NCBI GenBank assembly: GCA_964459675.1
Contig: CAYWNP010000002.1
Coordinates: 4,665 to 48,966, forward strand
DNA: 44,302 bases
Direction of reading: 5' to 3'
Source of the DNA: an uncultured Akkermansia sp.
GTDB taxonomy: Bacteria; Verrucomicrobiota; Kiritimatiellia; RFP12; UBA1067
Part shown: piece by piece, positions 1-42,266 of the stretch
Position numbering within the stretch: position 1 is the first letter of the stretch
Layout of the letters: each line of letters starts with the position of its first letter
Translations under genes and position numbers: made by a program
The notes under the pieces: model-generated
The model's database searches: none
Seen by the model: only the letters and a program-made list of their open reading frames with translations
What the model was told of the DNA's origin: nothing

Positions 1-72
1 GGCGAAGTCGTGATCGTTATCGCCGGCAACAATCCCAAGTTCGCCCGCGAAGAAGCCGAAGAGAAGTTCTAA
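1..72 (+). CDS. 3' end of an unidentified CDS truncated by the window edge
   Basis: Frame 1 is open from base 1 to TAA 70-72 (...GEVVIVIAGNNPKFAREEAEEKF*). Only 23 codons are visible, so the product cannot be assigned. Confidence 0.35.
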   Translation, partial: GEVVIVIAGNNPKFAREEAEEKF

Positions 73-100
73 AGTTCGAGATTTCTAAAGTTCTAAAGTT
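67..100. repeat. Tandem octamer array TTCTAAAG x4 (one degenerate unit)
   Basis: Units are at 67-74, 75-82 (TTCGAGAT), 83-90 and 91-98. The array begins at the stop codon of the upstream CDS. Confidence 0.8.
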
Positions 101-144
101 TTGGATACAGGGAGGAGAAAGCCAATATGGATTTACTCCCCATC

Positions 145-176
145 ATTCCACAATTCCATTTTTCCATTATTCCATT
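145..176. repeat. Tandem octamer array ATTCCATT x4
   Basis: The four units are ATTCCACA, ATTCCATT, TTTCCATT and ATTCCATT, in the spacer upstream of proS. Confidence 0.8.
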
Positions 177-316
177 CTTTTGTCTTGCGGAAACACCCGA
201 AATAAGGTGAAATAGTCTCTTAATTGTTTTGAATGTAATAGGTTAGGTAAATCACTGTCTTTTGGCTGTCCGCTGGAAGGTGTTTGTTTTGTCGGAAAAT
301 AGGAAGGAAATTTTTC

Positions 317-2020
317 ATGCGTTGGTCTCGTACTCTCATCACCACGTTGCGCGATGATCCCCAGGAAGCAGAAATCGCCAGTCACAAATTAATGGTTCGC
401 GCCGGACTGATCCGTAAGCTCTCGGGTGGGCTCTATACCTTTATGCCTTTCGGTGTTCGTGCGTTGCACAAGGTCGCACAGATTGTCCGCGAGGAGATGA
501 ATCGCGCGGGCGCTCAGGAAATTCTCATGCCGGCGCTGCAACCCGCAGAGATGTGGGAACGCTCCGGTCGTCTGGCCACCATGGGCCCAGGCATGTTCCG
601 GTTGAAGGATCGTGCCGAGCGCATGATGGTTCTCGGTCCGACCCATGAAGAGGTTACCACGGAGATGATGTGCAATGAGGTCAGCTCGTATCGCCAGCTT
701 CCCTGCACGGTCTATCAGATCCAGACGAAATTCCGTGACGAGATCCGTCCGCGCTTCGGCTTGATGCGCGCGAAGGAGTTCATCATGAAGGATGCCTACA
801 GCTTTGACGTCTCGTATGAGGCCGCGGATGCTTCGTATCAGGCGATGTATGATGCGTATGTCCGTATTTTCAAACGGTGCGGACTCTTGGCGCGTCCGGT
901 CGAGGCGGACACCGGGGACATCGGCGGTAAGTGGTCGCATGAGTTCATGGTGCTCGCGGACTCTGGCGAGGATGGCGTGATTGATTGCCCCGCATGCGGC
1001 TATGCAGCCAATCAGGAACGTGCGGAACGCAAGGTAGAGGCGACCGGATTGTCGTCCGATGGCGCGCTTGAAGAAGTTGCAACCCCCAATGTCCGTACAA
1101 TCGAACAGCTCATGGCCTTCTTTAAGTGTCCAGGGGATCTGTTCCTGAAAACATTGATCTACGTTGCCGATGGCAAGCCCGTGGCGGTGTTGGTGCCGGG
1201 TGACCGCGAACTGAACGAACCGAAGTTCAAGCGTCTCTTGGGCGTAAAGAAACTGGAGCTTGCAGATGACGCGACGATCCAGAGCGTGACCGGTGCGCCG
1301 GTCGGCTTTGCAGGTCCTGTCGGACTCTCCATCCCGCTCTATGCCGATCAGGCGCTGAAGGATTCCGTGGGCCGTATTTCAGGTGCGAACAAGGCGGATA
1401 CGCATTTAAAGAATGTTTCTTTAACGCGCGATGCAAAGGTTCTGGCCTTTGAAGATCTTGTTATGGTCGGGGCTGGCGATGCGTGTCCCCGTTGCGGTAA
1501 GCCATTGCAGATCAAACGGGGCATCGAAGTGGGCCACGTCTTCAAGCTCGGCACGAAATATTCAGAGTCCTTTGATGCAAAGTTTTTGAGTCCCGAAGGA
1601 CAACGTGAGCTGATGGTCATGGGCTGTTATGGGATCGGCGTGACGCGCACCCTGCAGGCGATCGTCGAGCAGAACCACGACGCAGATGGTATTTGCTGGC
1701 CCGTCTCGGTGGCACCCTTTGAGGTGACGCTGTTGAACTTGGATACCAAGGACGCGGCGGTTTGCGCGGTGGTGGATCAGTTGGAGAAAGAGCTTCAGGA
1801 CGTCGGCATTGACGTTTTTGTGGATGACCGTGAGGATCGCCCAGGCGTGAAATTTAAGGATGCGGATCTTCTCGGCTGTCCGATACGTGTTGTGGTGGGC
1901 GCCAAGGGGTTGGCCAAGGGCGGCGTCGAGGTCAAGATGCGCACCTCTAAGGAGGTCGCGATAGTGCCTGTCGATCAGGCGGTGGCGGATATTGTTGGGC
2001 GTGTGAAAAAGTTTGTTTAA
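317..2020 (+). CDS. proS: Prolyl-tRNA synthetase, bacterial type with editing insertion
   Basis: ORF 284-2020. The best start is ATG 317, preceded by AGGAAGGA at 301-308. The N-terminus is MRWSRTLITTLRDDPQEAEIASHKLMVRAGLIRK. ProRS/class-II blocks are FIMKDAYSF and GCYGIGVTR. The length (~567 aa) is typical. Confidence 0.95.
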   Translation: MRWSRTLITTLRDDPQEAEIASHKLMVRAGLIRKLSGGLYTFMPFGVRALHKVAQIVREEMNRAGAQEILMPALQPAEMWERSGRLATMGPGMFRLKDRAERMMVLGPTHEEVTTEMMCNEVSSYRQLPCTVYQIQTKFRDEIRPRFGLMRAKEFIMKDAYSFDVSYEAADASYQAMYDAYVRIFKRCGLLARPVEADTGDIGGKWSHEFMVLADSGEDGVIDCPACGYAANQERAERKVEATGLSSDGALEEVATPNVRTIEQLMAFFKCPGDLFLKTLIYVADGKPVAVLVPGDRELNEPKFKRLLGVKKLELADDATIQSVTGAPVGFAGPVGLSIPLYADQALKDSVGRISGANKADTHLKNVSLTRDAKVLAFEDLVMVGAGDACPRCGKPLQIKRGIEVGHVFKLGTKYSESFDAKFLSPEGQRELMVMGCYGIGVTRTLQAIVEQNHDADGICWPVSVAPFEVTLLNLDTKDAAVCAVVDQLEKELQDVGIDVFVDDREDRPGVKFKDADLLGCPIRVVVGAKGLAKGGVEVKMRTSKEVAIVPVDQAVADIVGRVKKFV

Positions 2021-2032
2021 TGGAGGGGTTTT

Positions 2033-2344
2033 ATGAAAAAAGAGACAGAGTACACAGGTATGGCTTTGACCAAACGCGATTTGGCCATTCTGATATCAGA
2101 GGAGAGCGGTTTGAATCAACAGCAGGCGTTGCATGCGGTGCAGTTGGCACTGGACAACATCTGCGCTGCGCTCGAGAAGGGACAGCACGTGGAGTTCAGG
2201 GATTTTGGCGTCTTTGAGATCGTGACGCGCAAGGCGCGCATCGGACGTAACCCCAACAAACCTCAGGATACCGTGACGATTCCCGAGCACAAGAGCGTGA
2301 AGTTCAAGCCCGGAAAACGCATGCGCGAAATGTTCGGGAACTAA
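2033..2344 (+). CDS. HU/IHF-family nucleoid-associated DNA-binding protein
   Basis: GGAGGGG lies just upstream of ATG 2033. The HU/IHF beta-arm signature is RKARIGRNPNKPQDTVTIPEHKSVKFKPGKRM. An alternative start is ATG 2060. Confidence 0.85.
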   Translation: MKKETEYTGMALTKRDLAILISEESGLNQQQALHAVQLALDNICAALEKGQHVEFRDFGVFEIVTRKARIGRNPNKPQDTVTIPEHKSVKFKPGKRMREMFGN

Positions 2345-2345
2345 C

Positions 2346-3614
2346 ATGACAGAGCCCCTCTCGTTTGAACCCCCGCGCGGGATGCGTGATTTCTATCCGG
2401 AAGACATGGTCTGGCGTAATCGCGTCTTTGATGCCTGGCGTCAAGCCTCGGTTTCGTTTGGCTTTCAGCCCTATGATGCCTGCGTGGTTGAGAACCTCGC
2501 CCTGCTGCAACGCAAGAGCGGCGAGGAGGTCTCGGAACAGATCTATCACTTTGAAGACAAGAGCGGACGCAAGCTCGCGCTACGGCCCGAGATGACGCCC
2601 ACCTTGGCGCGCATGATTGCCGCCAAGCAAGGCCAGCTCGCCTTCCCTGTCAAATGGTTCACGGTGGCGCAATGCTTTCGTTACGAACGCATGACGCGCG
2701 GACGCAAGCGCGAGCACTATCAGTGGAACATGGATGTCATCGGCGAAGAGAGCGTCTCTGCTGAAGCTGAGTTGCTGGCAGCGGTCGCACTCGCCTTGCA
2801 AAACATGGGCATGCCTGCTAACGGCTATCGCATTCATGTCAACAACCGCGCGCTGCTCTCCGAACTCTTGGCCGCTTCAGGCATCGCGGCGAACCATCAT
2901 GCCGCAGTCTTCCTCGCCTTGGATAAACGCGGAAAGATTGAAGACACAGAGATTCGCGACCTGCTCATCAAAGAGGGGCTCGATGAAACCGCGATTTCAA
3001 AAACCTTTGACCTGCTCTCCGTGCAAACCTTAGAGCAGGCCGCAGCACGGACTGCACCCGACTCGCCTGCAGTGAAGGCGTTGCGCGACCTCTTTGAACT
3101 CGCTGCAATTTATGGCATCGTTGATCGGCTGGTCTTTGACATTTCGGTCATTCGCGGACTCTCCTATTACACGGGCATTGTCTTTGAAGCTTTTGATGCT
3201 GAACGAAAATTCCGCGCCATCTTTGGTGGCGGACGCTATGACAGTCTCCTGACCGCGATCGGTGGACAGCCAACGCCTGCGGTCGGACTCGGCTTCGGCG
3301 ATGTCGTCGTGGTCGAGGTGCTGAAGGAACTGCTGGGCGAGACCGCTGCAACGGAAAAGCGCGGCGTGATCATCGGCTATATGTTTCCCGAACAACGCGA
3401 AGTGGCTACCGCACTCGCGCGTCGTTTGCGTGAGGCCGGTGAAGCGGTCGAGCTCATGCTCGCCAAACAGAAGCCGAAACAATTTTTCGCCCGTGCGAGT
3501 GCAAGTCCGGCTGCAGATGCGATCTTCATCGGACCCGACGATGTGACCAACGGCCGCGCCAAACGCAAAAACTTGACCACACGCGAAGAAGTAGAGATAC
3601 CGCTATGCAAGTGA
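2346..3614 (+). CDS. hisS: Histidyl-tRNA synthetase
   Basis: HisRS blocks are RPEMTPTLARM, FRYERMTRGRKREHYQWNMDVIG (motif 2) and FGGGRYDSLL (motif 3). A C-terminal anticodon-binding-type domain is present, which argues for HisS rather than HisZ. Confidence 0.9.
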   Translation: MTEPLSFEPPRGMRDFYPEDMVWRNRVFDAWRQASVSFGFQPYDACVVENLALLQRKSGEEVSEQIYHFEDKSGRKLALRPEMTPTLARMIAAKQGQLAFPVKWFTVAQCFRYERMTRGRKREHYQWNMDVIGEESVSAEAELLAAVALALQNMGMPANGYRIHVNNRALLSELLAASGIAANHHAAVFLALDKRGKIEDTEIRDLLIKEGLDETAISKTFDLLSVQTLEQAAARTAPDSPAVKALRDLFELAAIYGIVDRLVFDISVIRGLSYYTGIVFEAFDAERKFRAIFGGGRYDSLLTAIGGQPTPAVGLGFGDVVVVEVLKELLGETAATEKRGVIIGYMFPEQREVATALARRLREAGEAVELMLAKQKPKQFFARASASPAADAIFIGPDDVTNGRAKRKNLTTREEVEIPLCK

Positions 3615-4792
3615 TCTCACGTGCGATTCAGAAACAGATGGAGAACGCCTCGTGGATTCGGCGCATGTTCGAGAAGGGCATGGAGCTGAAGAAGCAGTTT
3701 GGCGCAGACAAGGTCTTTGACTTCAGCCTTGGAAATCCTGACATTCCGCCGCCCGCGCGGGCACGCGAAGCATTGTTGGCGATTACGGAACAGGCCGTGA
3801 AGCCGATGGGATTGGGCTATTGTCCGAATGCCGGACTCCCCGCATTTCGCGAAGCGCTTGCCGCGTGGTTGACAAAACAGCAGCAGGTGCCGCTGCAGAG
3901 CGCGCATATCGTTGTGACCTGTGGCGCCGCAGGTGCCTTGACCTCCTTCTTCCGCGCTGTGCTCGAACCCGGCGATGAAGTGCTCTCGCCTGCTCCCTGC
4001 TTTGTCGAGTATGGCGCCTATTGCGGACACTTCGGGGGCGTCCTGAAAACAGTCCCCTCGATGCCGCCCTCCTTTCAGCCGGATCTCGCCGGACTCGAGG
4101 CAGCGATTACGGAGAAGACGCGCGTCCTGATTATTAATTCCCCGAACAATCCGACCGGATGCGTCTACTCGCAAGAGACCTTGACGAAGTTGGGTCAGCT
4201 TGTGGAACGCGTCAATGCGACACGCGAGCGTCCGCTCTTTCTGGTCAGCGATGAGCCCTATCGTTTTCTCGCGTACGATGATGTGACGATTCCGCCCGTC
4301 CTTCCTGTCTCTCCCTTTGCCGTGGTCATGGGCTCCTTTTCAAAAAGCTTGTCCTTGGCTGGCGAGCGCATTGGCTACATTGCCGTAAACCCCGCCTTGC
4401 CGGATGTCGCCTTGCTGGTAAATGCAGTGACCATGACCAATCGCACATTGGGCTTTGTCAATGCGCCGATTTTGGGACAGCGGTTGGCCATGGCGCTGTT
4501 GGATGAGGGCGTGGACCTCTCGATCTATGATCGCCGCCGCAAGGCCATGGCCCAAGTGCTCACAGATGCCGGCATCCATTTTTCCATGCCGCAAGGGGCC
4601 TTCTATTTCTTCCCGAAGGCACCAGGGGGCGATGACCAAGCCTTTGTGCAGGCGCTCCTGCAATACAATGTGCTGGCTGTGCCAGGTACCGGCTTCGGTT
4701 TCCCCGGCTACTTCCGCCTGAGCTTCAGCGTCGAAGACAAAGTCATCGCCGGCTCAGCCTCTGGCTTTGCCGCCGCTGCAAAGCAGTTTTAA
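3605..4792 (+). CDS. PLP-dependent aminotransferase, class I/II (Asp/Ala aminotransferase-like)
   Basis: Fold-type I aminotransferase blocks are INSPNNPTG and GSFSKSLSLAGERIGY (PLP-lysine region). The start overlaps the hisS end by 10 nt. Confidence 0.85.
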   Translation: MQVISRAIQKQMENASWIRRMFEKGMELKKQFGADKVFDFSLGNPDIPPPARAREALLAITEQAVKPMGLGYCPNAGLPAFREALAAWLTKQQQVPLQSAHIVVTCGAAGALTSFFRAVLEPGDEVLSPAPCFVEYGAYCGHFGGVLKTVPSMPPSFQPDLAGLEAAITEKTRVLIINSPNNPTGCVYSQETLTKLGQLVERVNATRERPLFLVSDEPYRFLAYDDVTIPPVLPVSPFAVVMGSFSKSLSLAGERIGYIAVNPALPDVALLVNAVTMTNRTLGFVNAPILGQRLAMALLDEGVDLSIYDRRRKAMAQVLTDAGIHFSMPQGAFYFFPKAPGGDDQAFVQALLQYNVLAVPGTGFGFPGYFRLSFSVEDKVIAGSASGFAAAAKQF

Positions 4793-4822
4793 GGAGTCTT
4801 ATGGCATCTCCTCGTTTCCCGT

Positions 4823-4843
4823 GGGTTCAGGGTTCAGGGTTCA
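4823..4843. repeat. Tandem heptamer array GGGTTCA x3
   Basis: Three perfect units, read directly. Confidence 0.85.
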
Positions 4844-4883
4844 GCTTGGACGTTCAATGTGCCGTAGTCGTATCCGCGAAGGT

Positions 4884-4904
4884 GGATGTTGGATGTTCGA
4901 TGTT
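4884..4904. repeat. Tandem heptamer array GGATGTT x3
   Basis: The units are GGATGTT, GGATGTT and CGATGTT. Reverse-complement words (AACATCGAA x2) occur at 26347-26369. Confidence 0.85.
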
Positions 4905-4935
4905 CTCTTATATTCGTGCCGTTCGCGCAATTCGG

Positions 4936-6294
4936 ATGCTAAAAAATTACCCCCTTCTTTTTTCTTTTTTCTTTTTTCTTTCTTCTTTCCCCGCTTCCGC
5001 CGTCGACTTCACCGGTCCGACCGAGTGGGAGACGGTTCAGACCAACGTGGTCAAGACGTGGCAGGCTCAGCAAGTCGCAGCGACCTCCGCGAATGTGCGC
5101 GTCTGGGCGGGCGTCATTGCTGATCGCGAAAAACGCGAAGTGCGTCTCCTGGCCGAGGCGGTCGGTCATAACCTGGATACCACGATCGAATTTCTGATTG
5201 CAGCGCCACAGAGCAATCGTGCCTATGAGTCAGCCATGATGAGTGTGGCAAAGCCCTCTGACATTGTGCGTGCCCTGGAGTGGATCGGCCTTCCACGAGG
5301 AACCGTGATCAACGGACGTCAGTTCTGTTTCTGGCCCAAGGGCGAACGTGTTTCAGGGACCATCCGTCGTCTCAGCGATAAGCCCCTGTCGGCGCGGCCG
5401 TTGCAATCCGTGATCAAGGATGTCTCCAAGGAAGGGCCCCTGTATGGCGAAGCCGGGCTTGTCTTTACCGGGGGCACGTGGAAGGAGAATACCTGCAGCG
5501 TGGACACCGAGCAGCCTTGCTCCGTGATCGCCCTCTACAATGAAGAGGAGACGCTCTTGGATCTTCCCTTTCTCGCCTCCAAGGGTGTGGCGTATGGTCG
5601 GTCGGTCTTGGCGGAAAAGATGAACTATGGCGAAGTGCTGGAGGTGGTGATCATGCCGATGCTTCTGCCGGATGGCGCCTTGCGCACGACGCACCTTTTT
5701 CTGACTGCACATCCTTCGGAGATAAAGGAGACGACACTGGTTTGTGCCGACAATAAAGGGAAGGTCATTAAGAAGGGGACGTTAACAGAGGTGGTGACGT
5801 GGTTGAAAGCGTTGTCCGATCGTGGCGAAGATCTCTTTGTGACGCTGACCATGTCCGAGGAGATGACTCTGGCGCAGGCGGCTGATCTCGCAAGTCTCTT
5901 TGCATTGTTGGATGGCAAGGGAATCAAATTGTATGGAAAAGAGAAAGCGGGCATCTTTCCTCGCGCCTTTTTGCCACAAGAGGCATGGCGCAAACGGGAA
6001 GGGCGCACACCGCAGCCCTTTGAAGTCTATCTGCTCGGCGATACGAATCGGCTGACCTACATTGAGGAGGACTGGAGCGGAGAGGGGCTGGATCCCAAGC
6101 TCTCGCCAAAGGATTATCCCTTTTCTGAGGTGAGCGAATTGCCAGGGCTTGTCAAACGTGTCGGAGACAAGGATAGCAAAAAGGTCGAGCTGCTCTTTGT
6201 CTTCGCCTCTCGCAACACCCCTCTCAAAAAAGTAATGCCCGCCGTCCGCGCCCTCTCCGACCGCCTCCCCCTCGTCTATATTTTCGCCGAGTAA
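4936..6294 (+). CDS. Hypothetical secreted protein (family not recognised)
   Basis: ORF 4801-6294. ATG 4936 gives a Sec-type signal peptide MLKNYPLLFSFFFFLSSFPASA|VD. The 45 codons upstream of it run through tandem-repeat DNA that looks non-coding. Confidence 0.6.
   Translation: MLKNYPLLFSFFFFLSSFPASAVDFTGPTEWETVQTNVVKTWQAQQVAATSANVRVWAGVIADREKREVRLLAEAVGHNLDTTIEFLIAAPQSNRAYESAMMSVAKPSDIVRALEWIGLPRGTVINGRQFCFWPKGERVSGTIRRLSDKPLSARPLQSVIKDVSKEGPLYGEAGLVFTGGTWKENTCSVDTEQPCSVIALYNEEETLLDLPFLASKGVAYGRSVLAEKMNYGEVLEVVIMPMLLPDGALRTTHLFLTAHPSEIKETTLVCADNKGKVIKKGTLTEVVTWLKALSDRGEDLFVTLTMSEEMTLAQAADLASLFALLDGKGIKLYGKEKAGIFPRAFLPQEAWRKREGRTPQPFEVYLLGDTNRLTYIEEDWSGEGLDPKLSPKDYPFSEVSELPGLVKRVGDKDSKKVELLFVFASRNTPLKKVMPAVRALSDRLPLVYIFAE
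4955..4989 (+). repeat. Pyrimidine heptamer array TTCTTT(T/C) x5 inside the signal-peptide coding region
   Basis: TTCTTTT x3 followed by TTCTTTC x2. The array encodes ...LLFSFFFFLSSF... Confidence 0.8.
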
Positions 6295-6305
6295 CCTTGT
6301 TTTTT

Positions 6306-6410
6306 TCTCACAGAGTCACAGAGGGCACAGAGCTAAGGGATCAACATACTAAAAGCTTTATCTTTCATGCTTGATGAATACGCCTCTGTGACCTCTGTGC
6401 CTCTGTGAGA
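6306..6410. repeat. Inverted arrays of CACAGAG(G) words (x3 each) flanking a 49-bp AT-rich core
   Basis: The left arm TCTCACAGAGTCACAGAGGGCACAGAGC is at 6306-6332. The right arm GCCTCTGTGACCTCTGTGCCTCTGTGAGA is at 6382-6410. The element lies between two convergent gene ends. Confidence 0.8.
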
Positions 6411-6435
6411 AAAGATGTTCGTCAGTGTATTAACT

Positions 6436-6461
6436 GCCAACTGCTACTGCCAACTGCTACT
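6436..6461. repeat. 13-bp direct repeat GCCAACTGCTACT x2
   Basis: Read directly. It overlaps the stop codon of the DUF1080 gene. The related word ACTGCTACTGCCA is at 16956-16968. Confidence 0.8.
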
Positions 6462-7599: not shown

Positions 7600-7650
7600 C
7601 TCTGTTCTCCTTACTATACCTAAAATTTGCCTTATTTGGAAATTCTTCTT

Positions 7651-7688
7651 CATTCGCGCATTCCCGAATTCGCGAATTCGCGCACTTC
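7651..7688. repeat. ATTCGCGN octamer module (CATTCGCGCATTCCCGAATTCGCGAATTCGCGCACTTC)
   Basis: Four 8-bp units. Each 21-nt half recurs exactly near 16.9 kb. Confidence 0.85.
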
Positions 7689-7693
7689 TCTTA

Positions 7694-8361: not shown

Positions 8362-8548
8362 ATTGCCTTATTGCGTTATTGCCTTATTGCGTTATTAAGT
8401 GAAGCGAATACTGTTGGTCGTCTTACGCTTTTGGTATTCGCCGAATGGTTTCTTCTTCGCTCCAATGAGTCCATAATAGGTGTACATTCATGAAAACGTT
8501 GTCAAATCCACACAATAAGGCAATAACGCAATAAGGCAATAACGCAAT
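8362..8548. repeat. Inverted octamer arrays (ATTGCCTT/ATTGCGTT x4 and their reverse complement) bracketing a 117-nt core
   Basis: The arms are at 8362-8396 and 8514-8548. A perfect 27-bp stem is possible with a one-unit register shift. The core has an internal inverted repeat GCGAATAC (8404-8411) / GTATTCGC (8434-8441). Confidence 0.85.
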
Positions 8549-15310: not shown

Positions 15311-17095
<1,785 letters not shown>

Positions 17096-21591: not shown

Positions 21592-21601
21592 TTTCTTTCC
21601 C

Positions 21602-21625
21602 GCAGAGGCGCTGAGGCGCAGAGGA
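21602..21625. repeat. Tandem octamers GCAGAGGC / GCTGAGGC / GCAGAGGA
   Basis: Located in the spacer between tatC and hisB. TATTTTTCG-like repeats follow it. Confidence 0.7.
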
Positions 21626-21694
21626 GAATTATTTTTCGTATTTTTCGATTATTTCGGATGCTAAAAATTGAAGCTATAGACGAGGAGGTGTGAT

Positions 21695-26346: not shown

Positions 26347-26409
26347 AACATCGAACAGTCAACATCGAATTTTTAATAAGGCAATAAGGCAATGAGGCAA
26401 TAAGGCAAT
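26347..26409. repeat. AACATCGAA x2 followed by AATAAGGC octamer array x4
   Basis: AACATCGAA is at 26347-26355 and 26361-26369. AATAAGGC, AATAAGGC, AATGAGGC and AATAAGGC span 26375-26406. The site is the divergent spacer between the sensor kinase and the cupin gene. Confidence 0.85.
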
Positions 26410-26501: not shown

Positions 26502-26849
26502 ATGATTACAAAAAATTCAGCGTGTGTCGTCGAAGCGCGGGCCAATATGCGGGGTGGCAAGGGGACCGTGTGCGTGGAGCATTGGTTCAAACCCGAAAAC
26601 TTTAAAGCCAAGGTGCGCCTCTGTGCGCGGCTGGTCATTCCGCCGGGAGCCTCCATTGGCGAACATGCGCATGAGGCCGATGACGAAGTGTATATTGTTC
26701 TTTCCGGCAAGGGTCGTATTCTTGAAAAGGGCGAATGGGTCGAGATCGCCACAGGCGATGCCATCCTGACGGGCAATGGCGGCTCGCACAGTGTTGAGAA
26801 CACCGGCACCGAACCCCTCGTCATCGCCGCCATTATTATGGTTTACTAA
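26502..26849 (+). CDS. Cupin-domain protein
   Basis: The cupin_2-type metal motif is GASIGEHAHEADDEVYIVLSG...GGSHSVENTG. The stop overlaps the next start (TAATG). Confidence 0.75.
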   Translation: MITKNSACVVEARANMRGGKGTVCVEHWFKPENFKAKVRLCARLVIPPGASIGEHAHEADDEVYIVLSGKGRILEKGEWVEIATGDAILTGNGGSHSVENTGTEPLVIAAIIMVY

Positions 26850-27952: not shown

Positions 27953-27980
27953 TGGAGTATCCACTCCACTGGGTTTTCTC
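27952..27980 (+). terminator. Possible terminator after the Fe-ADH gene
   Basis: GTGGAGT-ATCC-ACTCCAC (7-bp stem) overlaps the stop codon and is followed by TGGGTTTTCTC. Confidence 0.45.
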
Positions 27981-28130
27981 ACAGAGCCATCCACCTTCGC
28001 GGATACGCCTACGGTGGACAGGCAGAGCTCACGGAGGAATCCAATTCAAGGCTCCTTCAATGCCCGCACGCGTGTCACGGCATATCAAATCACCTTGTCA
28101 TGGGAGCAAGCAAAGTGTTATTATTAAAAT

Positions 28131-33280: not shown

Positions 33281-34245
33281 TGGAGACTATGAACCACGTC
33301 ATTCAAATAAAGAACCTGGGAAAGACCTTCAAGGACTTTTGGCGCCGGCCTGTCGTCGAGGCTGTGAAGGATTTGAACCTGACCATTCAACAGGGCGAGG
33401 TCTTCGGACTTCTGGGGCCGAATGGCTCCGGCAAAAGCACCACATTGAAGATGATGCTCGGGCTTCTGCGTCCGACGCAGGGAACCATTGAGCTTTTTGA
33501 GGGCTGCGGACCGGAGGATGTCGCGGCCAAAGCGCGGGTGGGATATCTGCCCGAAGTTTCACATCTTCATGAATTTCTGACCCCGCGTGAAACGCTCCTG
33601 TACTATGCCTCTCTTTTTGGTCTTCCACAGGCTGATGCTAAGCGCCGCACAAAGGAACTCTTGCAGATGGTCGGACTCGAGTCTGTCGCCGATCGCGCCG
33701 TCGGAAAATTTTCAAAAGGCATGGCGCGTCGTGTGGGTCTGGCGCAGGCCCTCATTAACGCGCCGGAGTTGCTGATCCTGGATGAACCGACCTCTGGGTT
33801 GGATCCGATCGGTTGTCGCGAAGTCAAGGATCTGGTTCGTCTGTTGGCCAAGAGTGGCGTCACGGTACTGATGACCTCTCACCTGCTGGCAGATGTTGAG
33901 GATGTCTGTGATCGCGTGGCGATTATGAATCGAGGAGAGCTCTGTGCTTACGGTTCCACGCGCGACCTGCTGCGTAATCCCGATGTGGTGCGCTTCTCGA
34001 TCCCTGGGCTCTCGGCTGAAGCTGCCACGGAGATTCGCCATCAACTCGAACAACGCGCGGCACGACCTGTGCATCAAGATTTTCCGGAGATGAGCCTCGA
34101 AGCCTACTTCCTAAAAGTCGTCTCCCCTGAATCGGATAACACAGCCTTTAAGGTGGCACCCTTCCTCGAGAAGCTCCCGGCCTCCCTGGCCGCCGTAGCC
34201 TTGGCGGAGGGGACCGACCTCCGACCTCCGACCTCCGACCTCTGA
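33280..34245 (+). CDS. ABC transporter ATP-binding protein
   Basis: ORF trimmed to ATG 33280, which overlaps the upstream stop. Walker A GPNGSGKST, signature-region FSKGMARRVGLA, and Walker B LLILDEPTSGLD are present. The last ~10 codons and the stop lie in a heptamer repeat. Confidence 0.9.
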   Translation: METMNHVIQIKNLGKTFKDFWRRPVVEAVKDLNLTIQQGEVFGLLGPNGSGKSTTLKMMLGLLRPTQGTIELFEGCGPEDVAAKARVGYLPEVSHLHEFLTPRETLLYYASLFGLPQADAKRRTKELLQMVGLESVADRAVGKFSKGMARRVGLAQALINAPELLILDEPTSGLDPIGCREVKDLVRLLAKSGVTVLMTSHLLADVEDVCDRVAIMNRGELCAYGSTRDLLRNPDVVRFSIPGLSAEAATEIRHQLEQRAARPVHQDFPEMSLEAYFLKVVSPESDNTAFKVAPFLEKLPASLAAVALAEGTDLRPPTSDL

Positions 34246-34250
34246 CCTCT
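34214..34250 (+). repeat. Tandem heptamer array CCGACCT x4 + CTGACCT
   Basis: Read directly. The ABC ATPase stop codon TGA (34243-34245) lies in the variant fifth unit. Confidence 0.85.
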
Positions 34251-34253
34251 GTT

Positions 34254-35600: not shown

Positions 35601-35607
35601 GAAAAAC

Positions 35608-36201: not shown

Positions 36202-36214
36202 AAAAAAGGAAAAC

Positions 36215-37810: not shown

Positions 37811-37826
37811 GCGAAACGAGAAACAG

Positions 37827-38306
37827 GTGCTGGTGACAGATAATAAACAACAGGGTCTAGTTATCATCGCCTTTTGGCTTGCGCTTTCAAGCGTAACGCT
37901 CAGGATTATGCCATTACTGATCCTCTGTGCACTTGAGGCACTTGCAAAACCCTTTGCGGACGCGACAGAGCGCGTCCCTCCAGTGCATGAAAGCCCGTTC
38001 TCCTTGATTTTTGGAGGGCCACGCTCTGTCGTGGCCGTTTTCGTTGGAGGTTTTGCAAGTGCCTCACTTGTCTATTTTCAGGGTCAAACTAGTTTTGCAG
38101 GTCTTGCCGGATTTAGCGTGTTTATGTTGTTACCCATGTGGTTTGGTAGTCTGCTGGCTTGGCTTACAAGTCTAGTTATGGTGGTCATTATTGCTTTCCG
38201 TTGTCGTCCCTTACTGTTTACCAAAATGGGCATTGCCACGCTACTCATGCAGGAGGGGATTCTGGTTTGCATTGGAGCCATAGCTGTTTCAATCATCTAT
38301 AAGTGA
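37827..38306 (+). CDS. Doubtful small 4-TM membrane protein
   Basis: This is the part of ORF 37650-38306 downstream of the sulfatase stop, starting at GTG 37827 or ATG 37908. It has hydrophobic helices, but its third positions are AT-rich, unlike the neighbouring genes. A 131-nt imperfect palindrome lies inside it. Confidence 0.4.
   Translation: MLVTDNKQQGLVIIAFWLALSSVTLRIMPLLILCALEALAKPFADATERVPPVHESPFSLIFGGPRSVVAVFVGGFASASLVYFQGQTSFAGLAGFSVFMLLPMWFGSLLAWLTSLVMVVIIAFRCRPLLFTKMGIATLLMQEGILVCIGAIAVSIIYK
37935..38065. repeat. 131-nt imperfect palindrome with two internal hairpins
   Basis: The outer arms GAGGCACTTGCAAAACC (37935-37951) and GGTTTTGCAAGTGCCTC (38049-38065) are perfectly complementary. 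The inner hairpins are GGACGCG-ACAGAG-CGCGTCC (37958-37977) and GGCCACG-CTCTGT-CGTGGCC (38017-38036), and their loops are complementary to each other. Confidence 0.75.
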
Positions 38307-38308
38307 CC

Positions 38309-38334
38309 CTATCACAGTTTATAAACTGTGATAG
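38309..38334. promoter_or_regulatory. 26-bp perfect palindrome CTATCACAGTTTATAAACTGTGATAG (copy 1)
   Basis: Read directly. It starts 3 nt after the stop of the doubtful membrane ORF. It is a candidate dimeric-regulator operator. Confidence 0.55.
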
Positions 38335-38444
38335 AACGGTATGGATTCATTAACCGAAATGAACGATGGATTTAGCTAATAAAAACAAGTCATTCTTGAA
38401 AACAGGCAGCTTCATATTTAATAAAAATAACCAGCAAACAGTTA

Positions 38445-38468
38445 TATCACAGTTTATAAACTGTGATA
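38445..38468. promoter_or_regulatory. 24-bp perfect palindrome TATCACAGTTTATAAACTGTGATA (copy 2)
   Basis: Read directly. It ends 6 nt before the ArsR-like gene stop. GGGG follows it, mirroring the CCCC that precedes copy 3. Confidence 0.55.
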
Positions 38469-38474
38469 GGGGTG

Positions 38475-39047
38475 CTAACTTTTCTCTAAAACGAGATTGA
38501 GCAATTTTTTAGCCAAAGGACGTGCGGGAATGCATAAAGTTACGCTGGATTCTGACAAGGCGACCACGGCCCGATTTTCGAGTTTCTTCAATTGCCGATG
38601 GAGGGTTTGGTAGGGCACACGACAAAGCGTGGACAATTCAGAGGGTGAACAATCTGGATTGGCTTCGATGACACGGACCATCAAAATCCGCTTGGGGCAG
38701 GTAAAAATAGTCAGGTCTTTTAATACGATCGCGTATGCTTTGGCATCTGTACAACTCCGTAAGGTAGTAATGACGGTCTTTAAAAGGGTGTCTGCGTGTT
38801 TGACTCTGGGGTTAGCTCCCAGGGAGTAATCAACCCATCGCCCACGTCGGCTCGCCTGTAAAAACCCGCGTGCGTTCAGGATGCGCAGGTACTGGCTGCA
38901 GACGCTCTTTTTCAATTTACAACGTGCCGCTAGTGTCTGAACGCACAAAGGCGATTCATCGATCATGGCTTTCAATAATGACAGCCGGGTGCGATTGGCC
39001 AATGCCCGGCAACTTCTCCATACAGTTGGTTCTAGTATTTTGCTCAT
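38475..39047 (-). CDS. ArsR/SmtB-like transcriptional regulator with two tandem winged-HTH domains
   Basis: ORF trimmed to ATG 39047 (MSKILEPTVW). The first wHTH is ALANRTRLSLLKAMIDESPLCVQTLAARCKLKKSVCSQYLRILNARGFLQASRRGRWVDYSL. The second is CPKRILMVRVIEANPDCSPSELSTLCRVPYQTLHRQLKKLENRAVV. Confidence 0.75.
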   Translation of the reverse strand: MSKILEPTVWRSCRALANRTRLSLLKAMIDESPLCVQTLAARCKLKKSVCSQYLRILNARGFLQASRRGRWVDYSLGANPRVKHADTLLKTVITTLRSCTDAKAYAIVLKDLTIFTCPKRILMVRVIEANPDCSPSELSTLCRVPYQTLHRQLKKLENRAVVALSESSVTLCIPARPLAKKLLNLVLEKS

Positions 39048-39058
39048 ATAAACAACCC

Positions 39059-39084
39059 CTATCATAGTTTATAAACTGTGATAG
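39059..39084. promoter_or_regulatory. 26-bp palindrome CTATCATAGTTTATAAACTGTGATAG (copy 3, one mismatch), probable operator
   Basis: It lies 12 nt upstream of the ArsR-like start codon, in the divergent spacer shared with the Cys4-protein gene. Confidence 0.6.
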
Positions 39085-39229
39085 TATGATACAAGGTCGC
39101 TCTGGGTTATCGCAATGACAAAATAGGGAAGAAACTGGCCCCAAACTGAGATTGATATCAAAAACGCGATTATGGTAATCTTAAAAAAAGAGTATTTTGT
39201 ATAGGTCGTCAACTTATTGAGTAGCGCTG

Positions 39230-40093
39230 ATGTTTAAAGATATCGGCCATGAAAGGGAACGCATGGAAAAAGAACGGTTTATTACTGGTATTTATAACTA
39301 CTGTGATTATTGGTGTGAGCGGTGCGCATTTACGCGACAATGCCGTACATTTGCGATGGGTAAGGAAATGGAGGCGGAACAGAAGTCAGATCGGGACGAT
39401 GCCACGAACATGACCTTCTGGAACAAGCTCGCAGGCAAGCTGAGTCAGGCTTCAATGATGTCAAGCGAACAGGGGTGGTTGCAAACGGATTGGCAGGATG
39501 AGGATGGCTTGGATGCAAATGACTTTCTGCATGAGGAAGAGGACGATGCGGAGATGGATGAATATATGCGTCAGGACGAGGCGCGTCAGCAGAAAGTACG
39601 TCAAAGCCCACTCTCCCGTATGGCCATGGAGTATATGCAACGTGTCCAAGCGTGGCTGAAAGACTCGGATGCGGATTTAAAGGCACTTGCCCAGGAGTGG
39701 CTCGAGGCCGCGAAAACGCGTGAGCAAGATTGTGATTATGAGGAACTGGCCCACTGCGTGGGGGATATGCTCGAAGTAATCACGTGGTACCATACATTCT
39801 TACCCCCGAAGGTCAACCGGGCGTTGCGCAGCAATTTTGAAATGAAAACCAGAGAATCCGGTATCCTTGCAGAATCAAGCCAGTTTGATGCCAATGGCTC
39901 TGGCAAGGTGGTTTTAATCGCCGTGGAACGTTCCATCTCTGCTTGGCTGTTTCTTCGCGACCACTTGTCCAAACAGGAGGATACGATCTTATCCATGCTA
40001 GTGATTCTAGGTCGCATCCGAAATGGGATTCAGGAAGAGATTCCAAACGCGAAGACTTTCCGCCGACCTGGGTTCGAGAATGGTAAGTTCTAA
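39230..40093 (+). CDS. Hypothetical protein with N-terminal CX3CX2CX5C cluster and a strongly acidic linker
   Basis: The N-terminus is ERFITGIYNYCDYWCERCAFTRQC. An acidic stretch DWQDEDGLDANDFLHEEEDDAEMDEY follows, then a helical C-terminal domain. No family was recognised. An alternative start is ATG 39263. Confidence 0.55.
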   Translation: MFKDIGHERERMEKERFITGIYNYCDYWCERCAFTRQCRTFAMGKEMEAEQKSDRDDATNMTFWNKLAGKLSQASMMSSEQGWLQTDWQDEDGLDANDFLHEEEDDAEMDEYMRQDEARQQKVRQSPLSRMAMEYMQRVQAWLKDSDADLKALAQEWLEAAKTREQDCDYEELAHCVGDMLEVITWYHTFLPPKVNRALRSNFEMKTRESGILAESSQFDANGSGKVVLIAVERSISAWLFLRDHLSKQEDTILSMLVILGRIRNGIQEEIPNAKTFRRPGFENGKF

Positions 40094-40199
40094 TTAGTGG
40101 ATGCATGCTGGCTGGAGTACCTCTGGCTGTAGTGAGTTACAAGTGGGTTCCAACCTCTAGGCTTGAGTCTCGTGTGTGTCCGTGTTATTGTTTTTGCAA

Positions 40200-40958
40200 A
40201 TGCAATCAGAACGGAAAATAGTGGCTGGGCATGTGGTGCCGTTCGCGCTGTGGATCAGCGTGATCTTTTTGCTGCAGGGACTGGAGGGTCTCGGGGTGAC
40301 GTCGCGTCTCCTGTTGCCGTGGAGTTATGCGCTTAAGACTGTCGCCTGCGTAGCCCTCTTTCTCTTGTTAAAGCCGTGGACCGTCTATCCGTCGCTGAAG
40401 CTCTCCAACGTGCCGTTGGCCCTTTTTGCCGGTGTCGTTGTGACGCTCGCCTGGGTGGTGCCTGAGACGCCGTGGTTCGGAAGACTCCTGCCCGACGTGC
40501 AGCTCTTTTATAACAGATGGTGTATCATGATGCCCGGCGAGCTGCCGAGTTATTACAATCCAGACTTCTTCCCTGCTCTCCCGCCGGGCCATGCGTCCCT
40601 CGCCTATTCTCCCGCTGAGGCGGGCTGGCCGTTGACGATCATGAAGCTGATCGGTTCCGCATGTGTCATTGCGGTCATCGAGGAATTTTTCTTCCGTGGC
40701 TTCTTCTATCGCTGGTTACGGCAGGGACAGTTTTGGAACGTGCCGCTCAAGCTTCTTGATCAACAGGCCTTCTGGACCGTGGTCGCGGTCTTCGGTCTTG
40801 AACATGACCGCTGGCTCGCCGGGCTTTTTGCTGGCGTAGTCTACGGCTGGCTGACCGTCCGCACAGGCGATATCTGGTGCGCGGCACTTGCTCATTTCAT
40901 CACCAATCTCCTCCTTGGCCTCTATGTGATCTGTTCCGGCCAGTATGGTTTTTGGTAA
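40200..40958 (+). CDS. CPBP-family (CAAX-protease-like) intramembrane glutamic endopeptidase
   Basis: ORF 40176-40958 with the first ATG at 40200. CPBP motifs are EEFFFRGFFYRW (EExxxR), FGLEHDRW (FxxxH) and HFITNLL (HxxxN). Confidence 0.8.
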   Translation: MQSERKIVAGHVVPFALWISVIFLLQGLEGLGVTSRLLLPWSYALKTVACVALFLLLKPWTVYPSLKLSNVPLALFAGVVVTLAWVVPETPWFGRLLPDVQLFYNRWCIMMPGELPSYYNPDFFPALPPGHASLAYSPAEAGWPLTIMKLIGSACVIAVIEEFFFRGFFYRWLRQGQFWNVPLKLLDQQAFWTVVAVFGLEHDRWLAGLFAGVVYGWLTVRTGDIWCAALAHFITNLLLGLYVICSGQYGFW

Positions 40959-40969
40959 GCGCTATTCTT

Positions 40970-42154
40970 CTACGTTCGCTCACGAGAGGGGATGACGCCG
41001 GGCGAGATTGCGCTATCGCCTAACTTGGCGCGTAAGGCATCCATCGTATGACACAACTTCTCGCGCTTGGCACGGCTGGCGCGCGCGTTGTCAAAGAGGG
41101 TCAGCTGTTCGCGCGGATTCGGAGTGAGACCTGTCACACCAAAGCCGATCAGGCGGACGGGCTGGATCAGTTGTTCGGTGTCAAAGAGTTTCAGGGCCAG
41201 CGCGCGAAAGGAAAAGTCGTCACACACCGGTACGTCAAAGGGTGCCTGGCGCGTAATGGTCTTAAAATCGGCCCAGCGGAGTTTCAGGCGTCCTGTCGCC
41301 GCATAAAAACCATGACGGCGCACGCGCTCTCCCACATCGACGACAAGGCCGCGCAGGACATCGCGAAGCAACTCGGGGTCGGAGCAGTCTGTCAGAAAGG
41401 TGTATTCCCTTGAAACGCTCTTTTCGACGTTTTCAGTCTCGACCGCCCGGCTGTCCTCGCCAAAGGCCAGGGACATGAGGTGCTCTGCGAAGGTTGCGCC
41501 AAAGAGGCGCTCCAGTTTTTTGGGATCGCCCTTCTGGATATCCGCGACCGTCTGGTAGCCGGCGTTCACTAGGGCTTCGCCGGTCACCTTGCCGACACCC
41601 CAGAGACTCCCGACCTTCAGGGCGCCCAGGAAACGGATGACGCCCTCGCGCGTATGCGGCACCACAAAGAGACCATCGGGTTTTGCGCGTTCACTCCCCA
41701 GCTTGGCTAGGAACTTGTTGTGTGCCACCCCCACGGAGGCCGCGAGATGGACCTCCGTGTGAATCAAGGCGCGCAGTTGTTTGGCGATGGCTTCGCCTGA
41801 ACCGAAGAGGGTATGCGCGCCGGTCACATCAATAAAGGCTTCATCACAGGAGATGGGTTCGATCAGCGGAGAGAAGCGCTCGAAGATTTCAAAGACTTTG
41901 CGGGATGCCTCGTCGTAGCGCGCCATGTCCGGCGGGCGGAAGACGGCATGGGGACACCGCCGATAAGCTTCGCGGGAGGGCATGGCTGAGTGGATGCCAA
42001 AGGCTCGCGCTTCATACGAACAGGTGCAGACGACGCCCCTCTGATCTGGAGGGGAGCCGACGACTACGGGCTTGCCGCGCAATTCCGGCCTGTCGCGTTG
42101 TTCAACCGACGCGAAAAAGGCATCCATGTCGATATGGAGAATGCAACGGGCCAT
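40970..42154 (-). CDS. dinB: DNA polymerase IV (Y-family)
   Basis: ORF trimmed to ATG 42154 (MARCILHIDMDAFFASVEQRD). Y-family blocks include SCDEAFIDVT and the little-finger region. Confidence 0.92.
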   Translation of the reverse strand: MARCILHIDMDAFFASVEQRDRPELRGKPVVVGSPPDQRGVVCTCSYEARAFGIHSAMPSREAYRRCPHAVFRPPDMARYDEASRKVFEIFERFSPLIEPISCDEAFIDVTGAHTLFGSGEAIAKQLRALIHTEVHLAASVGVAHNKFLAKLGSERAKPDGLFVVPHTREGVIRFLGALKVGSLWGVGKVTGEALVNAGYQTVADIQKGDPKKLERLFGATFAEHLMSLAFGEDSRAVETENVEKSVSREYTFLTDCSDPELLRDVLRGLVVDVGERVRRHGFYAATGRLKLRWADFKTITRQAPFDVPVCDDFSFRALALKLFDTEQLIQPVRLIGFGVTGLTPNPREQLTLFDNARASRAKREKLCHTMDALRAKLGDSAISPGVIPSRERT

Positions 42155-42214
42155 GGAGAGAATTACCGCTTCGCTTTCGACTTTCGTCGAATGGTTTCCG
42201 CTTCGCTTCAACGA

Positions 42215-42266
42215 GCCTTATTGCGAAATTGCCTTATTGCCTTATTTGATCCTTAAGGCAATGAGG
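42215..42266. repeat. ATTGCCTT-family words (direct x3) plus one inverted AAGGCAAT
   Basis: GCCTTATTGCGAAATTGCCTTATTGCCTTATTTG is followed by AAGGCAATGAGG. The site is the spacer between the dinB start and the infC stop. Confidence 0.8.

Follow-up and report, generated by a model that had tools for sequence, protein, structure and literature searches.

The stretch of DNA considered here, referred to as the window, is 44,302 nucleotides long and corresponds to C2:4665-48966 of G000, a metagenome-assembled genome (MAG) of the Kiritimatiellia (2.67 Mb, 232 contigs, 86% complete, 53% G+C). A preliminary description of the window drew attention to its intergenic spacers, in which short words are repeated head to tail, and it is the nature of these arrays that is examined below. 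The window and its genome were compared with five other species of the same genus (congeners G001-G005, of which G002 is a closed genome); labels such as C14 or C200 denote contigs of G000 unless another genome is named, and L numbers denote loci. Elsewhere in the genus, inverted pairs of arrays bracket small genes of the families PF05635 and PF13366. Such a gene with its two arrays is called a cassette, the arrays its arms, a pair of inverted arms enclosing no gene a gene-less foldback, and a single array a solo arm. Only gene-less and solo forms are present in the window, and there is no PF05635 gene in any of them. The elements were located with Tandem Repeats Finder, by reading the sequence, and by 12-mer matches to a flank library (220-240-nt flanks of PF05635 or PF13366 genes from other species).

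64-100, + strand: TTCTAAAG array of 4.6 units with the variant unit TTCGAGAT, a solo arm of the TTCTAAAG family (Tandem Repeats Finder).
140-176, + strand: ATTCCATT-type array of 4.6 units, assigned to no gene-carrying cassette (Tandem Repeats Finder).
4823-4844, + strand: GGGTTCA array of three units, the distal module of a reverse-oriented composite element (Tandem Repeats Finder).
4858-4884, + strand: copy of a ~33-nt hairpin resembling a repetitive extragenic palindrome (REP), reverse complement of ..CCTTCGCGGATACGACTACGGC.. (sequence).
4883-4904, + strand: GGATGTT array of three units, AACATCC/AATATCC family (Tandem Repeats Finder).
4906-4947, - strand: ATTCGYG..TTCGGATGCTAAAAAA module, with 54 copies in the genome, of the arm type of GxxExxY (PF13366) cassettes (sequence; 12-mer match).
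4955-4988, + strand: TTCTTTT array of 4.9 units, encoding the hydrophobic core of a signal peptide (Tandem Repeats Finder).
6300-6416, + strand: gene-less foldback with CACAGAG(N1-2) x3 arms at 6308-6332 and 6383-6408 and a 50-nt core (Tandem Repeats Finder).
6433-6461, + strand: ACTGCCAACTGCT array of 2.2 units, a solo arm of the GGCAGT family (Tandem Repeats Finder; 12-mer match).
7652-7688, + strand: ATTCGCG(N) array of four units (Tandem Repeats Finder).
8362-8548, + strand: gene-less foldback with left arm ATTGCCTT/ATTGCGTT x4.4 (8362-8396), a 117-nt core and right arm AAGGCAAT/AACGCAAT x4.5 (8513-8548) (Tandem Repeats Finder).
16844-16988, no strand assigned: stacked arm remnants upstream of the 15311-16969 gene, namely CGCGAATG-type (16844-16871), ACTGCTACTGCCA (16956-16968) and ATTCGCGAATTCGCG (16968-16988); 16956-88 has a 12-mer match to PF05635 flanks.
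16997-17095, no strand assigned: gene-less foldback of CATACATGCC / GGCATGTATGG words (sequence and Tandem Repeats Finder; 12-mer match).
21601-21624, + strand: CGCAGAGG array of three units, GxxExxY-cassette arm type (Tandem Repeats Finder).
21630-21668, + strand: TATTTTTCG x3 followed by TTCGGATGCTAAAAA, a variant of the ATTCGYG..GGATGCTAAAAA arm (12-mer match).
26347-26409, + strand: AACATCG words (26347-69) followed by AAGGCAAT x4.4 (26375-26409), a solo arm in right-arm orientation, 92 nt upstream of the start at 26502.
27976-28034, + strand: CACAGAG array split by a nested 33-nt REP-like hairpin at ~27991-28023 (sequence; ortholog comparison).
34174-34249, + strand: insertion of ~70 nt at a gene junction, comprising a REP-like hairpin and CCGACCT x5 at 34214-49 (Tandem Repeats Finder; alignment).
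42215-42266, no strand assigned: miniature foldback of ATTGCCTT x4 and a short AAGGCAATGAGG stretch (12-mer match to PF05635 flanks).

The arrays of the preliminary description were recovered by Tandem Repeats Finder at the same coordinates, and the smaller items (26347-69, 27976-86, 16956-88, ~7628 and 4908-35) were confirmed by reading the sequence. For the whole genome, the set used comprises the arrays with a period of 7-9 and a score of at least 36, of which G000 has 485. Gene calls made for this analysis give 2276 genes and leave 10.5% of the DNA non-coding; 372 of the 485 arrays (77%) are intergenic, and 46 more lie within the first 200 nt of called genes. The earlier statement that the words are almost confined to non-coding DNA is thus roughly right, but some arrays lie in frame inside genes, for example within glycosyltransferase genes on contig C72. 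A first-order Markov simulation of all intergenic DNA yields 0-2 intergenic arrays of this kind, compared to 370 in the real sequence. At a score of at least 30, G000 contains 1404 arrays, with periods 7, 8 and 9 in sharp excess (171, 340 and 327 arrays, against 43, 47 and 50 in the block-shuffled genome). The enrichment of arrays in the spacers is therefore confirmed and lies far above chance.

More than 100 different words are found in this one genome. They collapse to a few superfamilies: C[AG]C[AG][AG]AG plus 1-2 nt, TTCTAAAG, AAGGCAAT, AACATCC / AATATCC, ATTCG[CT]G, GGCAGT and GACAGGATT. Words of the genus are present in all five congeners, where AAGGCAAT x3 has 15-133 matches and TTCTAAAG x3 has 3-175, with almost none for the reversed-pattern controls. 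In other genera of the family these words are only sporadic. The earlier suggestion of a class specific to one lineage is borne out. Similar arrays, made of other or related words, are found in samples of 58-100 kb taken from such genera (32 per 100 kb in G008, 19 in G013 and 19 in G024), and two order-level relatives have fewer (10 and 5 per 100 kb).

The arrays are dispersed copies rather than independent stutters. As had been noticed within the window, the same words recur at unlinked loci: 218 of the 406 arrays that are at least 24 nt long have an exact 24-mer in common with another array locus. Nearly all of these recurrent 24-mers hold variant units in a fixed order; TTCTAAAGTTCTAAAATGCTAAAGTTCTAAAG has 11 exact occurrences and CACAGAGGCACAGAGAGCACAGAG is found at 20 loci. 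The number of units is tightly confined to 3-5, with six or more in only nine of the 485 arrays, and orthologous arrays keep their unit number with one exception (6433-6461, which differs from its G004 counterpart by one unit). In the retained elements at 6300-6416 and 8362-8548, the arms are 95-100% identical between species, compared to 70-85% for the core and the neighbouring genes. The former is kept in both G001 and G004 at ~95% identity, and in the latter the arms are 100% conserved in G001 and the core ~70%.

The genes that such arrays bracket belong mostly to two small families. The first, PF05635 (23S rRNA intervening-sequence protein; TIGR02436, 'four helix bundle protein'), is clearly matched by three genes of G000. 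Two of these (C14:30528-30827 and C200:1659-1952) lie between TTCTAAAG arrays of 32-36 nt, each the exact reverse complement of its partner, variant units included, and the third, C47:2180-2488, has arms of the AATATCC/AACATCC type. Inverted arrays, with a period of 7-9 nt or double that, are found around all three genes in G000 and around 32 of the 32 genes detected at E < 1e-9 in the five congeners. Their arm words include ATTGCCTT/AAGGCAAT (G002, G005), GGCAGT/ACTGCCAACTGCTACT (four loci), TTCTAAAG, ATAGCATGTATAGCAG/CCTGCCATACATGC, AATATCC, ACTGCCAACTGCT and CATACATGC. Across the order, with one locus taken per genome, flanking inverted repeats of at least 18 nt occur at 19 of 30 PF05635 loci and are periodic in 14 of the 19, with a period of 7-8 and in one case 10. 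Among 378 size-matched control genes of G000 (90-200 aa), such repeats occur in 13 and are periodic in two, the C200 cassette being one of these two. The clades into which the PF05635 protein tree divides correspond to arm words, also for paralogs at non-orthologous loci (L179/L180 in G001; C14/C200 in G000), and thus gene and arms travel together.

The second family, PF13366 (TIGR04256, 'GxxExxY protein'), is a PD-(D/E)XK nuclease family without assigned function (PMC3424549). It has four copies in G000 and 18 in four congeners; among the 20 loci examined, 19 have inverted arrays on both sides of the gene. These arms are of three kinds. One is the C[AG]C[AG][AG]AG family, represented by CACAGAG, by TCACAGAGGCACAGAG.../...CCTCTGTGAG at C68:7763-8116 and by CGCAGAGG/CCTCTGCGCCTCAGCGCCTCTGCG at C15; another is TTAGCATCCGAAT..CACGAAT / ATTCGTG..ATTCGGATGCTAAAAA, the 54-copy module, of which the TTTTTCG variant lies at 21630-68 in the window; the third is GACAGGATT, and CGCAAAGAA arms are also found among the PF13366 loci. 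A third kind of cargo is encountered at C226:1-780, where a HigB-like toxin (PF05015) and its helix-turn-helix antitoxin are bracketed by inverted TTCTAAAG arrays.

Many window elements can be matched by word to gene-carrying cassettes of the genus. The word at 64-100, which shares a 12-mer with congener cassette flanks, forms the inverted arms of PF05635 cassettes at C14, at C200 and in G002. Other PF05635 genes are bracketed by AATATCC/AACATCC-type arms, as at 4883-4904 (C47 and G005), by GGCAGT/ACTGCC arms, as at 6433-6461 (L179, L180, L187, L191), by the arm type of the 8362-8548 foldback (L182 in G002 and L195 in G005) and by ATAGCATGTATAGCAG / CCTGCCATACATGC (L161, at G004:C33:15105). 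For PF13366 genes, the corresponding arms are ATTCGYG..TTCGGATGCTAAAAAA (L218, L221, L222, L229, L232), its variant at 21630-21668 (L219 in G001), CGCAGAGG / CCTCTGCGCCTCAGCGCCTCTGCG (L220, at G000:C15, and L217), and the arm type of 6300-6416, which encloses the GxxExxY gene at C68:7763-8116 and another in G005. In the CACAGAG family, the conserved ends reach beyond the arrays. The words GGAATNNT/CCATCATT form the arms of gene-less foldbacks in G002 and G004.

Comparison of orthologous spacers reveals how these elements come and go. Synteny with the window is kept in G001 and G004, at a nucleotide identity of 82-92%. Spacers free of arrays show normal conservation; in those that bear arrays, one module after another is replaced between the three. 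The spacer at 21592-21694 has CGCAGAGG x3 and a TTTTTCG..GGATGCTAAAAA module in the window, AAGGCAAT x2 in G001 and a 166-nt GGAATNNT foldback in G004. At 7652-7688, G001 has a structured element of ~230 nt and G004 a CACAAAG foldback. At the 3605 junction, stop and start codons overlap in the window and in G005, and foldbacks of 140-240 nt, made of three different words, are present in G001, G004 and G002. The insertion at 34174-34249 is not present at the G001/G004 junction; it extends the upstream open reading frame (ORF) as a C-terminal tail and supplies its stop codon. At 27976-28034, the G004 ortholog has an intact array and an independent copy of the hairpin in the other arm, so that the 33-nt hairpin was inserted within arrays, at CA^CAGAG, in two independent events. 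The module order of the composite at 4823-4844 is repeated at other loci, and a module of ~50 nt sits between AAGGCAAT units. The notion of recombination substrates, which was among the roles first proposed for the arrays, may be partly true, since modules are swapped at array joints.

The distal part of the spacer next to proS (140-176) carries different arrays in each sister species. Its proS-proximal part, at 178-316 (cttttgtcttgcggaaa..gaaataaggtgaaatagtc.cttaattgttttgaatgtaataggttagg), is conserved in five species, has no Rfam match and is probably a real promoter or leader.

Beyond the window, one and the same gene junction can be empty, or can hold a full cassette, a gene-less foldback or a solo arm, depending on the sister species. 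At C55, G000 is empty (cccaTAATGgcc; a TAATG stop/start overlap with no array), and G005 and G003 have a full PF05635 cassette inserted exactly between the stop and the start codon. Where congeners hold a full cassette, G000 has two arms without a gene at C58 and one arm only at C81; at C28 it retains only the right AAGGCAAT arm, just before the next ribosome-binding site, and G005 has the full cassette. At C14, G000 carries a AATGCGCG/CATTCGCG foldback in place of the PF05635 cassette of G001 and G004, and other congener cassette sites likewise have a different foldback in G000.

The position of the arrays relative to genes is not random. Their density per kb is 2.4 in convergent spacers, 1.63 in co-directional and 0.59 in divergent ones (chi-square p = 2e-11), and they favour the 3' ends of genes. 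Elements tolerated at gene ends would be distributed in this way, and promoter-bound regulators would not. For arrays of AAGGCAAT, the coding strand is favoured 19:6 and the median distance to the start codon that follows is 28 nt, because the right cassette arm ends just before the ribosome-binding site of the next gene. A recurring order within spacers is TTTTTTAGCATCCGAATGRCRCGAACCACACGAATG (54 copies), AACATCS units, the 33-nt hairpin, AAGGCAAT units, ribosome-binding site and ATG. Of the 54 copies of the TTAGCATCCGAA module, 33 face a start codon and 19 a stop codon, which is a bias only, and a strict orientation rule was rejected. A promoter or 5'-untranslated-region module was also considered and dropped: GAAGTTATAGACAAGGAG beside AAGGCAAT arrays precedes only ~25 genes and fits neither sigma-70 nor sigma-54. 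Consensus scans found no excess of promoters or terminators. Nor are hairpins a general rule, since only ~16% of arrays have an inverted partner within 300 nt; inverted array pairs with gaps of 1-400 nt number 39 in G000. Solo arrays are unstructured in RNA folds (z between -2 and +2), and the foldback at 6300-6416 gives -52.2 kcal/mol (z = -7.4).

It is likely, in our view, that small selfish gene cassettes account for the arrays, which would be their terminal inverted arms and the products of their decay. A full cassette would consist of a word array (3-5 copies of a 7-9-nt word), a small gene and the same array inverted, seated precisely at the junction of two host genes, after the stop codon of the first and before the start codon of the second. 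Its cargo would be a PF05635 four-helix bundle of the type found in 23S rRNA intervening sequences (IVS) or in Avd, a PF13366 GxxExxY nuclease or, in one instance, a higBA toxin-antitoxin pair. Gene and arms would be inherited and relocated together, each cassette lineage having its own word. Loss of the gene would leave a gene-less foldback and further deletion a solo arm. Repeated insertion, nesting (including that of the 33-nt hairpin) and decay might then stack arms into the spacer-filling 'concatenated arrays' of the preliminary description.

By analogy with rRNA IVS, the arms may pair in the host transcript to form a stem of ~25-36 bp, which RNase III would cut, so that the insertion is removed or neutralised at the RNA level. 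Such removal would explain why cassettes are tolerated at stop/start junctions and in frame inside genes, as on C72. Predicted folds are consistent with arm pairing: the C200 cassette closes on its outer arms at -164.8 kcal/mol (z = -5.4) and the C68 cassette at -136.8 kcal/mol (z = -2.4). A gene for RNase III is present in G000 at C1:2703-3092. Candidates for mobility are the nuclease and a nucleic-acid-binding pentamer; the closest solved relative of the C14 protein by sequence, PDB 2rld, is deposited as five chains, and PF05635 resembles the pentameric Avd protein of diversity-generating retroelements (PMC10053308, PMC6182149).

Several points weigh against the cassette origin of the arrays. 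Gene-carrying cassettes in G000 number only 3 + 4 + 1, against 485 arrays. The flank library is matched at the 12-mer level by 263 of the 485 arrays, compared to 17 of 485 after shuffling of units, but this 54% overstates the specific links because the flanks hold nested arrays, and random intergenic 30-mers match at a rate of 13.7%. The remaining 222 arrays (46%) have no 12-mer in common with the sampled cassette flanks, and ATTCCATT, GGGTTCA and CCGACCT were never found around a gene at the loci sampled. No clear target-site duplication is visible at the empty/filled pairs compared, nor could another insertion signature be defined there. Lastly, G000 is an 86%-complete MAG in 232 contigs; the same structures are present in the closed genome G002.

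Three other explanations were weighed. The arrays could be pre-existing host features that serve as a landing pad, into which cassettes and the 33-nt hairpin insert. The two hairpin insertions at CA^CAGAG, the ~50-nt module between AAGGCAAT units and the fact that arrays far outnumber genes all fit this proposal. It nevertheless appears unlikely, given that the empty C55 site lacks any array and the filled sites in G005 and G003 have both arms and the gene, that PF05635 clades match arm words across species and non-orthologous loci, and that the arms of a cassette are exact reverse complements down to their variant units. It might also be supposed that the arrays are ordinary, long simple-sequence repeats, made in place by slippage and tolerated in non-coding DNA, with the link to cassettes being secondary. 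Many bacteria have an excess of heptamers, for which slippage has been put forward as the origin (PMC4692102), heptamer number varies between strains in the Coxiella IVS (PMC4990558), the array at 6433-6461 does differ by one unit from that of G004, and the 46% of arrays with no cassette tie would find a place here. Slippage, which the preliminary description had offered as one origin, is disfavoured by the narrow range of 3-5 units, by identical ordered variant units at up to 20 unlinked loci, by the unit number kept among orthologs, by the better conservation of orthologous arrays than of their surroundings, and by differences between species that involve whole modules and not units; we regard it as very unlikely.

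A further possibility is that the arrays are sites in cis for a DNA- or RNA-binding protein of the host, such as a regulator of translation or mRNA stability, and are kept by selection. Binding by S1, Csp or Csr has been proposed for TAACTGA repeats (MacGregor 2015, PMC4679880), and both the bias of AAGGCAAT arrays towards the coding strand (19:6, median 28 nt upstream of starts), with their Shine-Dalgarno-like UAAGG, and the conservation of arrays beyond that of flanking spacer DNA speak for such sites. Against this stand the diversity of more than 100 words in one genome, the different words, or none, at orthologous junctions of sister species, and the depletion of arrays in divergent spacers; the position of AAGGCAAT is accounted for by its role as right arm. 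We give this explanation the least credence, and the regulator or nucleoid binding sites envisaged earlier are likewise disfavoured by the scarcity of arrays in divergent, promoter-only spacers.

The cassette origin finds its closest parallel in the 23S rRNA IVS. The Coxiella IVS has a terminal stem of 28 bp, which RNase III cleaves; it also contains an S23p ORF and, in its 5' arm, 3-4 tandem GACAGAT heptamers (PMC4990558). Like the ORF-bearing IVS of Coxiella burnetii and Leptospira (PMC4990558), the cassettes have a long terminal inverted repeat closing a stem-loop, a four-helix-bundle gene of the S23p type (PF05635) in the loop of full cassettes (C14, C200, C47 and the 32 congener genes), tandem units in the arm (3-5 or more of 7-9 nt, as with the Coxiella heptamers) and a sense orientation within the host transcript. 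Unlike the IVS, which occupy helix 25 or 45 of the 23S rRNA, all cassettes examined lie between or inside protein-coding genes, so they may work like IVS, with excision by RNase III, but are not rRNA IVS. They differ further in having many lineages, each with its own word, in their second cargo (the GxxExxY nuclease), and in that gene-less and solo forms make up the majority of copies.

Bacterial heptamers repeated in tandem were first known in 1990. In that year, Mazel reportedly described the short tandemly repeated repetitive (STRR) heptamers of cyanobacteria. The arrays have the properties of the STRR type: head-to-tail units of 5-11 nt, a mainly intergenic location and lineage-specific words. 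Other examples are GGGAATC of Xanthomonas and GGGGAYT of Nostoc (PMC4692102), and TAACTGA of Beggiatoaceae, cyanobacteria and Bacteroidetes (PMC4679880). With these known heptamers the arrays have in common short runs of 7-9-nt units, ~80-90% of them intergenic, close to the end of a neighbouring ORF, made of genus-specific words and in some cases paired in inverted orientation. The published heptamers are treated as simple-sequence DNA or regulator sites, and no cargo is reported for them; the words described here are linked to two families of genes and belong to many families found side by side, and their arrays act like dispersed copies.

The resemblance to miniature transposable elements with inverted repeats (MITEs) and foldback elements is that the cassettes and their remnants are small, non-autonomous, bounded by inverted repeats, indel-polymorphic between relatives, expanded in lineage-specific bursts and occasionally resident in frame. 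They are unlike MITEs in that their arms are tandem sub-repeats and the gene of full cassettes codes for a four-helix bundle or a PD-(D/E)XK nuclease and not a DDE transposase. No transposase-encoding parent was found, and no target-site duplication could be defined at the empty/filled pairs compared. A transposon parent with CACAGAG ends was sought and rejected: there are no kb-scale inverted CACAGAG pairs in the closed genome G002, and the genes between long-range array pairs in G000 have housekeeping functions (PrmC, riboflavin synthase, a HAD hydrolase and others). Retro-mobility of the diversity-generating type was discarded as well, as there is no RVT_1 match in the 86%-complete G000 assembly. 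The earlier view that the arrays do not represent CRISPR is upheld, since the 7-9-nt units abut head to tail in no more than eight copies and are not the 24-48-nt repeats, set apart by unique spacers of like length, that CRISPR would require.

Like REPs and bacterial interspersed mosaic elements (BIMEs), and like REPINs (REP doublets) with their REP-associated tyrosine transposases (RAYTs; PMC3116915, PMC3733652), the arrays are extragenic, mosaic and biased towards the 3' ends of genes, and a REP-like 33-nt hairpin coexists with them and nests in them. They are unlike these systems in being direct repeats and not palindromes, and the RAYT genes of G000 are flanked by GC-rich REP hairpins of another kind, not by word arrays; classical REP/BIME architecture was thus rightly set aside. 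REP/RAYT as the source of the arrays was rejected for the further reason that PF01797 genes are common across the order regardless of arrays. The 33-nt hairpin itself, TCCACCTTCGCGGATACGCCTACGGTGGACAGG / (T)CCRCCTTCGCNNNNNNCTACGGYGGACAGG, has a CTAC/GTAG tag and co-varying stem ends, and it occurs at 27991-28023 and ~34174-34213 in the window and at many other loci. It resembles REPs of the GTAG-tagged kind, and a link with RAYTs is plausible for the hairpin; several Y1/RAYT-like genes are present in G000. In Nostoc, very small mobile repeats are said to insert in tandem heptamer arrays and in each other (Elhai et al. 2008, Genome Res 18:1484). The nested Nostoc repeats are comparable to the nested 33-nt hairpin and not to the arrays themselves, and that work is not known to describe cassette genes.

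Heptamer repeats are over-represented in many bacterial genomes and are still unexplained (PMC4692102, PMC4679880). In the genus studied here, heptamers lead back, one word after another, to the arms of two tiny cassette families built like rRNA IVS, a link that offers an origin for such repeats. It is tempting to speculate that word-armed cassettes form a widespread and essentially undescribed class of mobile elements in transcribed operon spacers, rendered harmless by RNase III excision in the manner of a protein-independent intron; the rRNA IVS would then be one special case, and STRR, GGGAATC and TAACTGA-like repeats would be orphaned arms. We consider this wider proposal possible and put it forward tentatively. 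Literature searches on Kiritimatiellota repeats, PF05635/TIGR02436 and GxxExxY, which did not cover all journals, revealed no account of word-armed cassettes. Questions that can be tested are whether RNase III excises the cassettes from mRNA, whether the S23p-like pentamer or the GxxExxY nuclease recognises its own word, and how the cassettes move. In annotation, spacers made of arm remnants should not be taken for promoters or regulatory arrays, and arrays that run into ORF ends or signal peptides give rise to spurious or extended gene calls.

Such overlaps with genes occur in the window. In the 64-100 array, the first unit contains what is probably the stop codon of the upstream ORF (TAA, 70-72), and the module at 4906-4947 holds the likely start ATG (4936) of the downstream secreted protein. 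In this protein (4936-6294), the signal-peptide core is built from the TTCTTTT x5 heptamers, and its likely start lies inside the GGATGCTAAAAA module; in the orthologs compared (G004, G005, G002), the core is built from other heptamers, TTTTCAC x4. No copy of the CCGACCT array of 34174-34249 was found in any locus compared.

Arms of the TTCTAAAG type cluster in gene clusters for polysaccharide biosynthesis (C14:22.9-31.8 kb and C72:1-8.5 kb in G000; G002:C1:2.857-2.871 Mb), where they bracket almost every gene. Such clusters are possible hot spots, either of cassette traffic or of the shuffling of genes between arms. On C72, glycosyltransferase and epimerase ORFs (909-2306 and 4335-6386) stay open through several inserted arrays and composites, the inserts being translated as EVLKFESAKVLKL, ENIEHSTSSF..YAKATVDETADR and similar; one frame stays clear of stop codons in TTCTAAAG variants that have TTCGAAAG or TTCGAGAG units. 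This is reminiscent of the palindromic elements of Rickettsia, small inverted-repeat elements that sometimes lie in frame within genes.

Other repeat families are also present. Searches of Rfam at the gathering threshold returned only tRNA in the window and four syntenic loci. A structured family of ~230-330 nt occurs in G000 at C1:30011-30938, C3:17390-17964, C30 (~17152), C46 (~1849) and C97 (~826), and in congeners at the G001 ortholog of window positions 7600-7693 (L093:8075-8340) and at the G001 and G002 orthologs of 4792-5005. It has long-range complements (cgcgaagatcgctat...atagcgatcttagcg and gtgcttgcacg...cgtgcaagcac), often follows the TTAGCATCCGAA module, and has no Rfam match in the loci searched. 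A structured RNA and a further class of foldback are both conceivable. Very long ORFs (1100-1230 aa) with Y1-transposase-like segments and internal repeats of 43-50 nt are found at C82:7550-8673 and on C163, perhaps as artefacts that arise where repeat DNA and scaffold gaps are read through. Finally, GC-rich repeats (ggagggacgcgctctgtcgcgtcc / ccacgacagagcgtggccctcc), either tandem or inverted, occur at C4:15607-16223 and at 37990-38090 in the window; they are REP-like and distinct from the word arrays.

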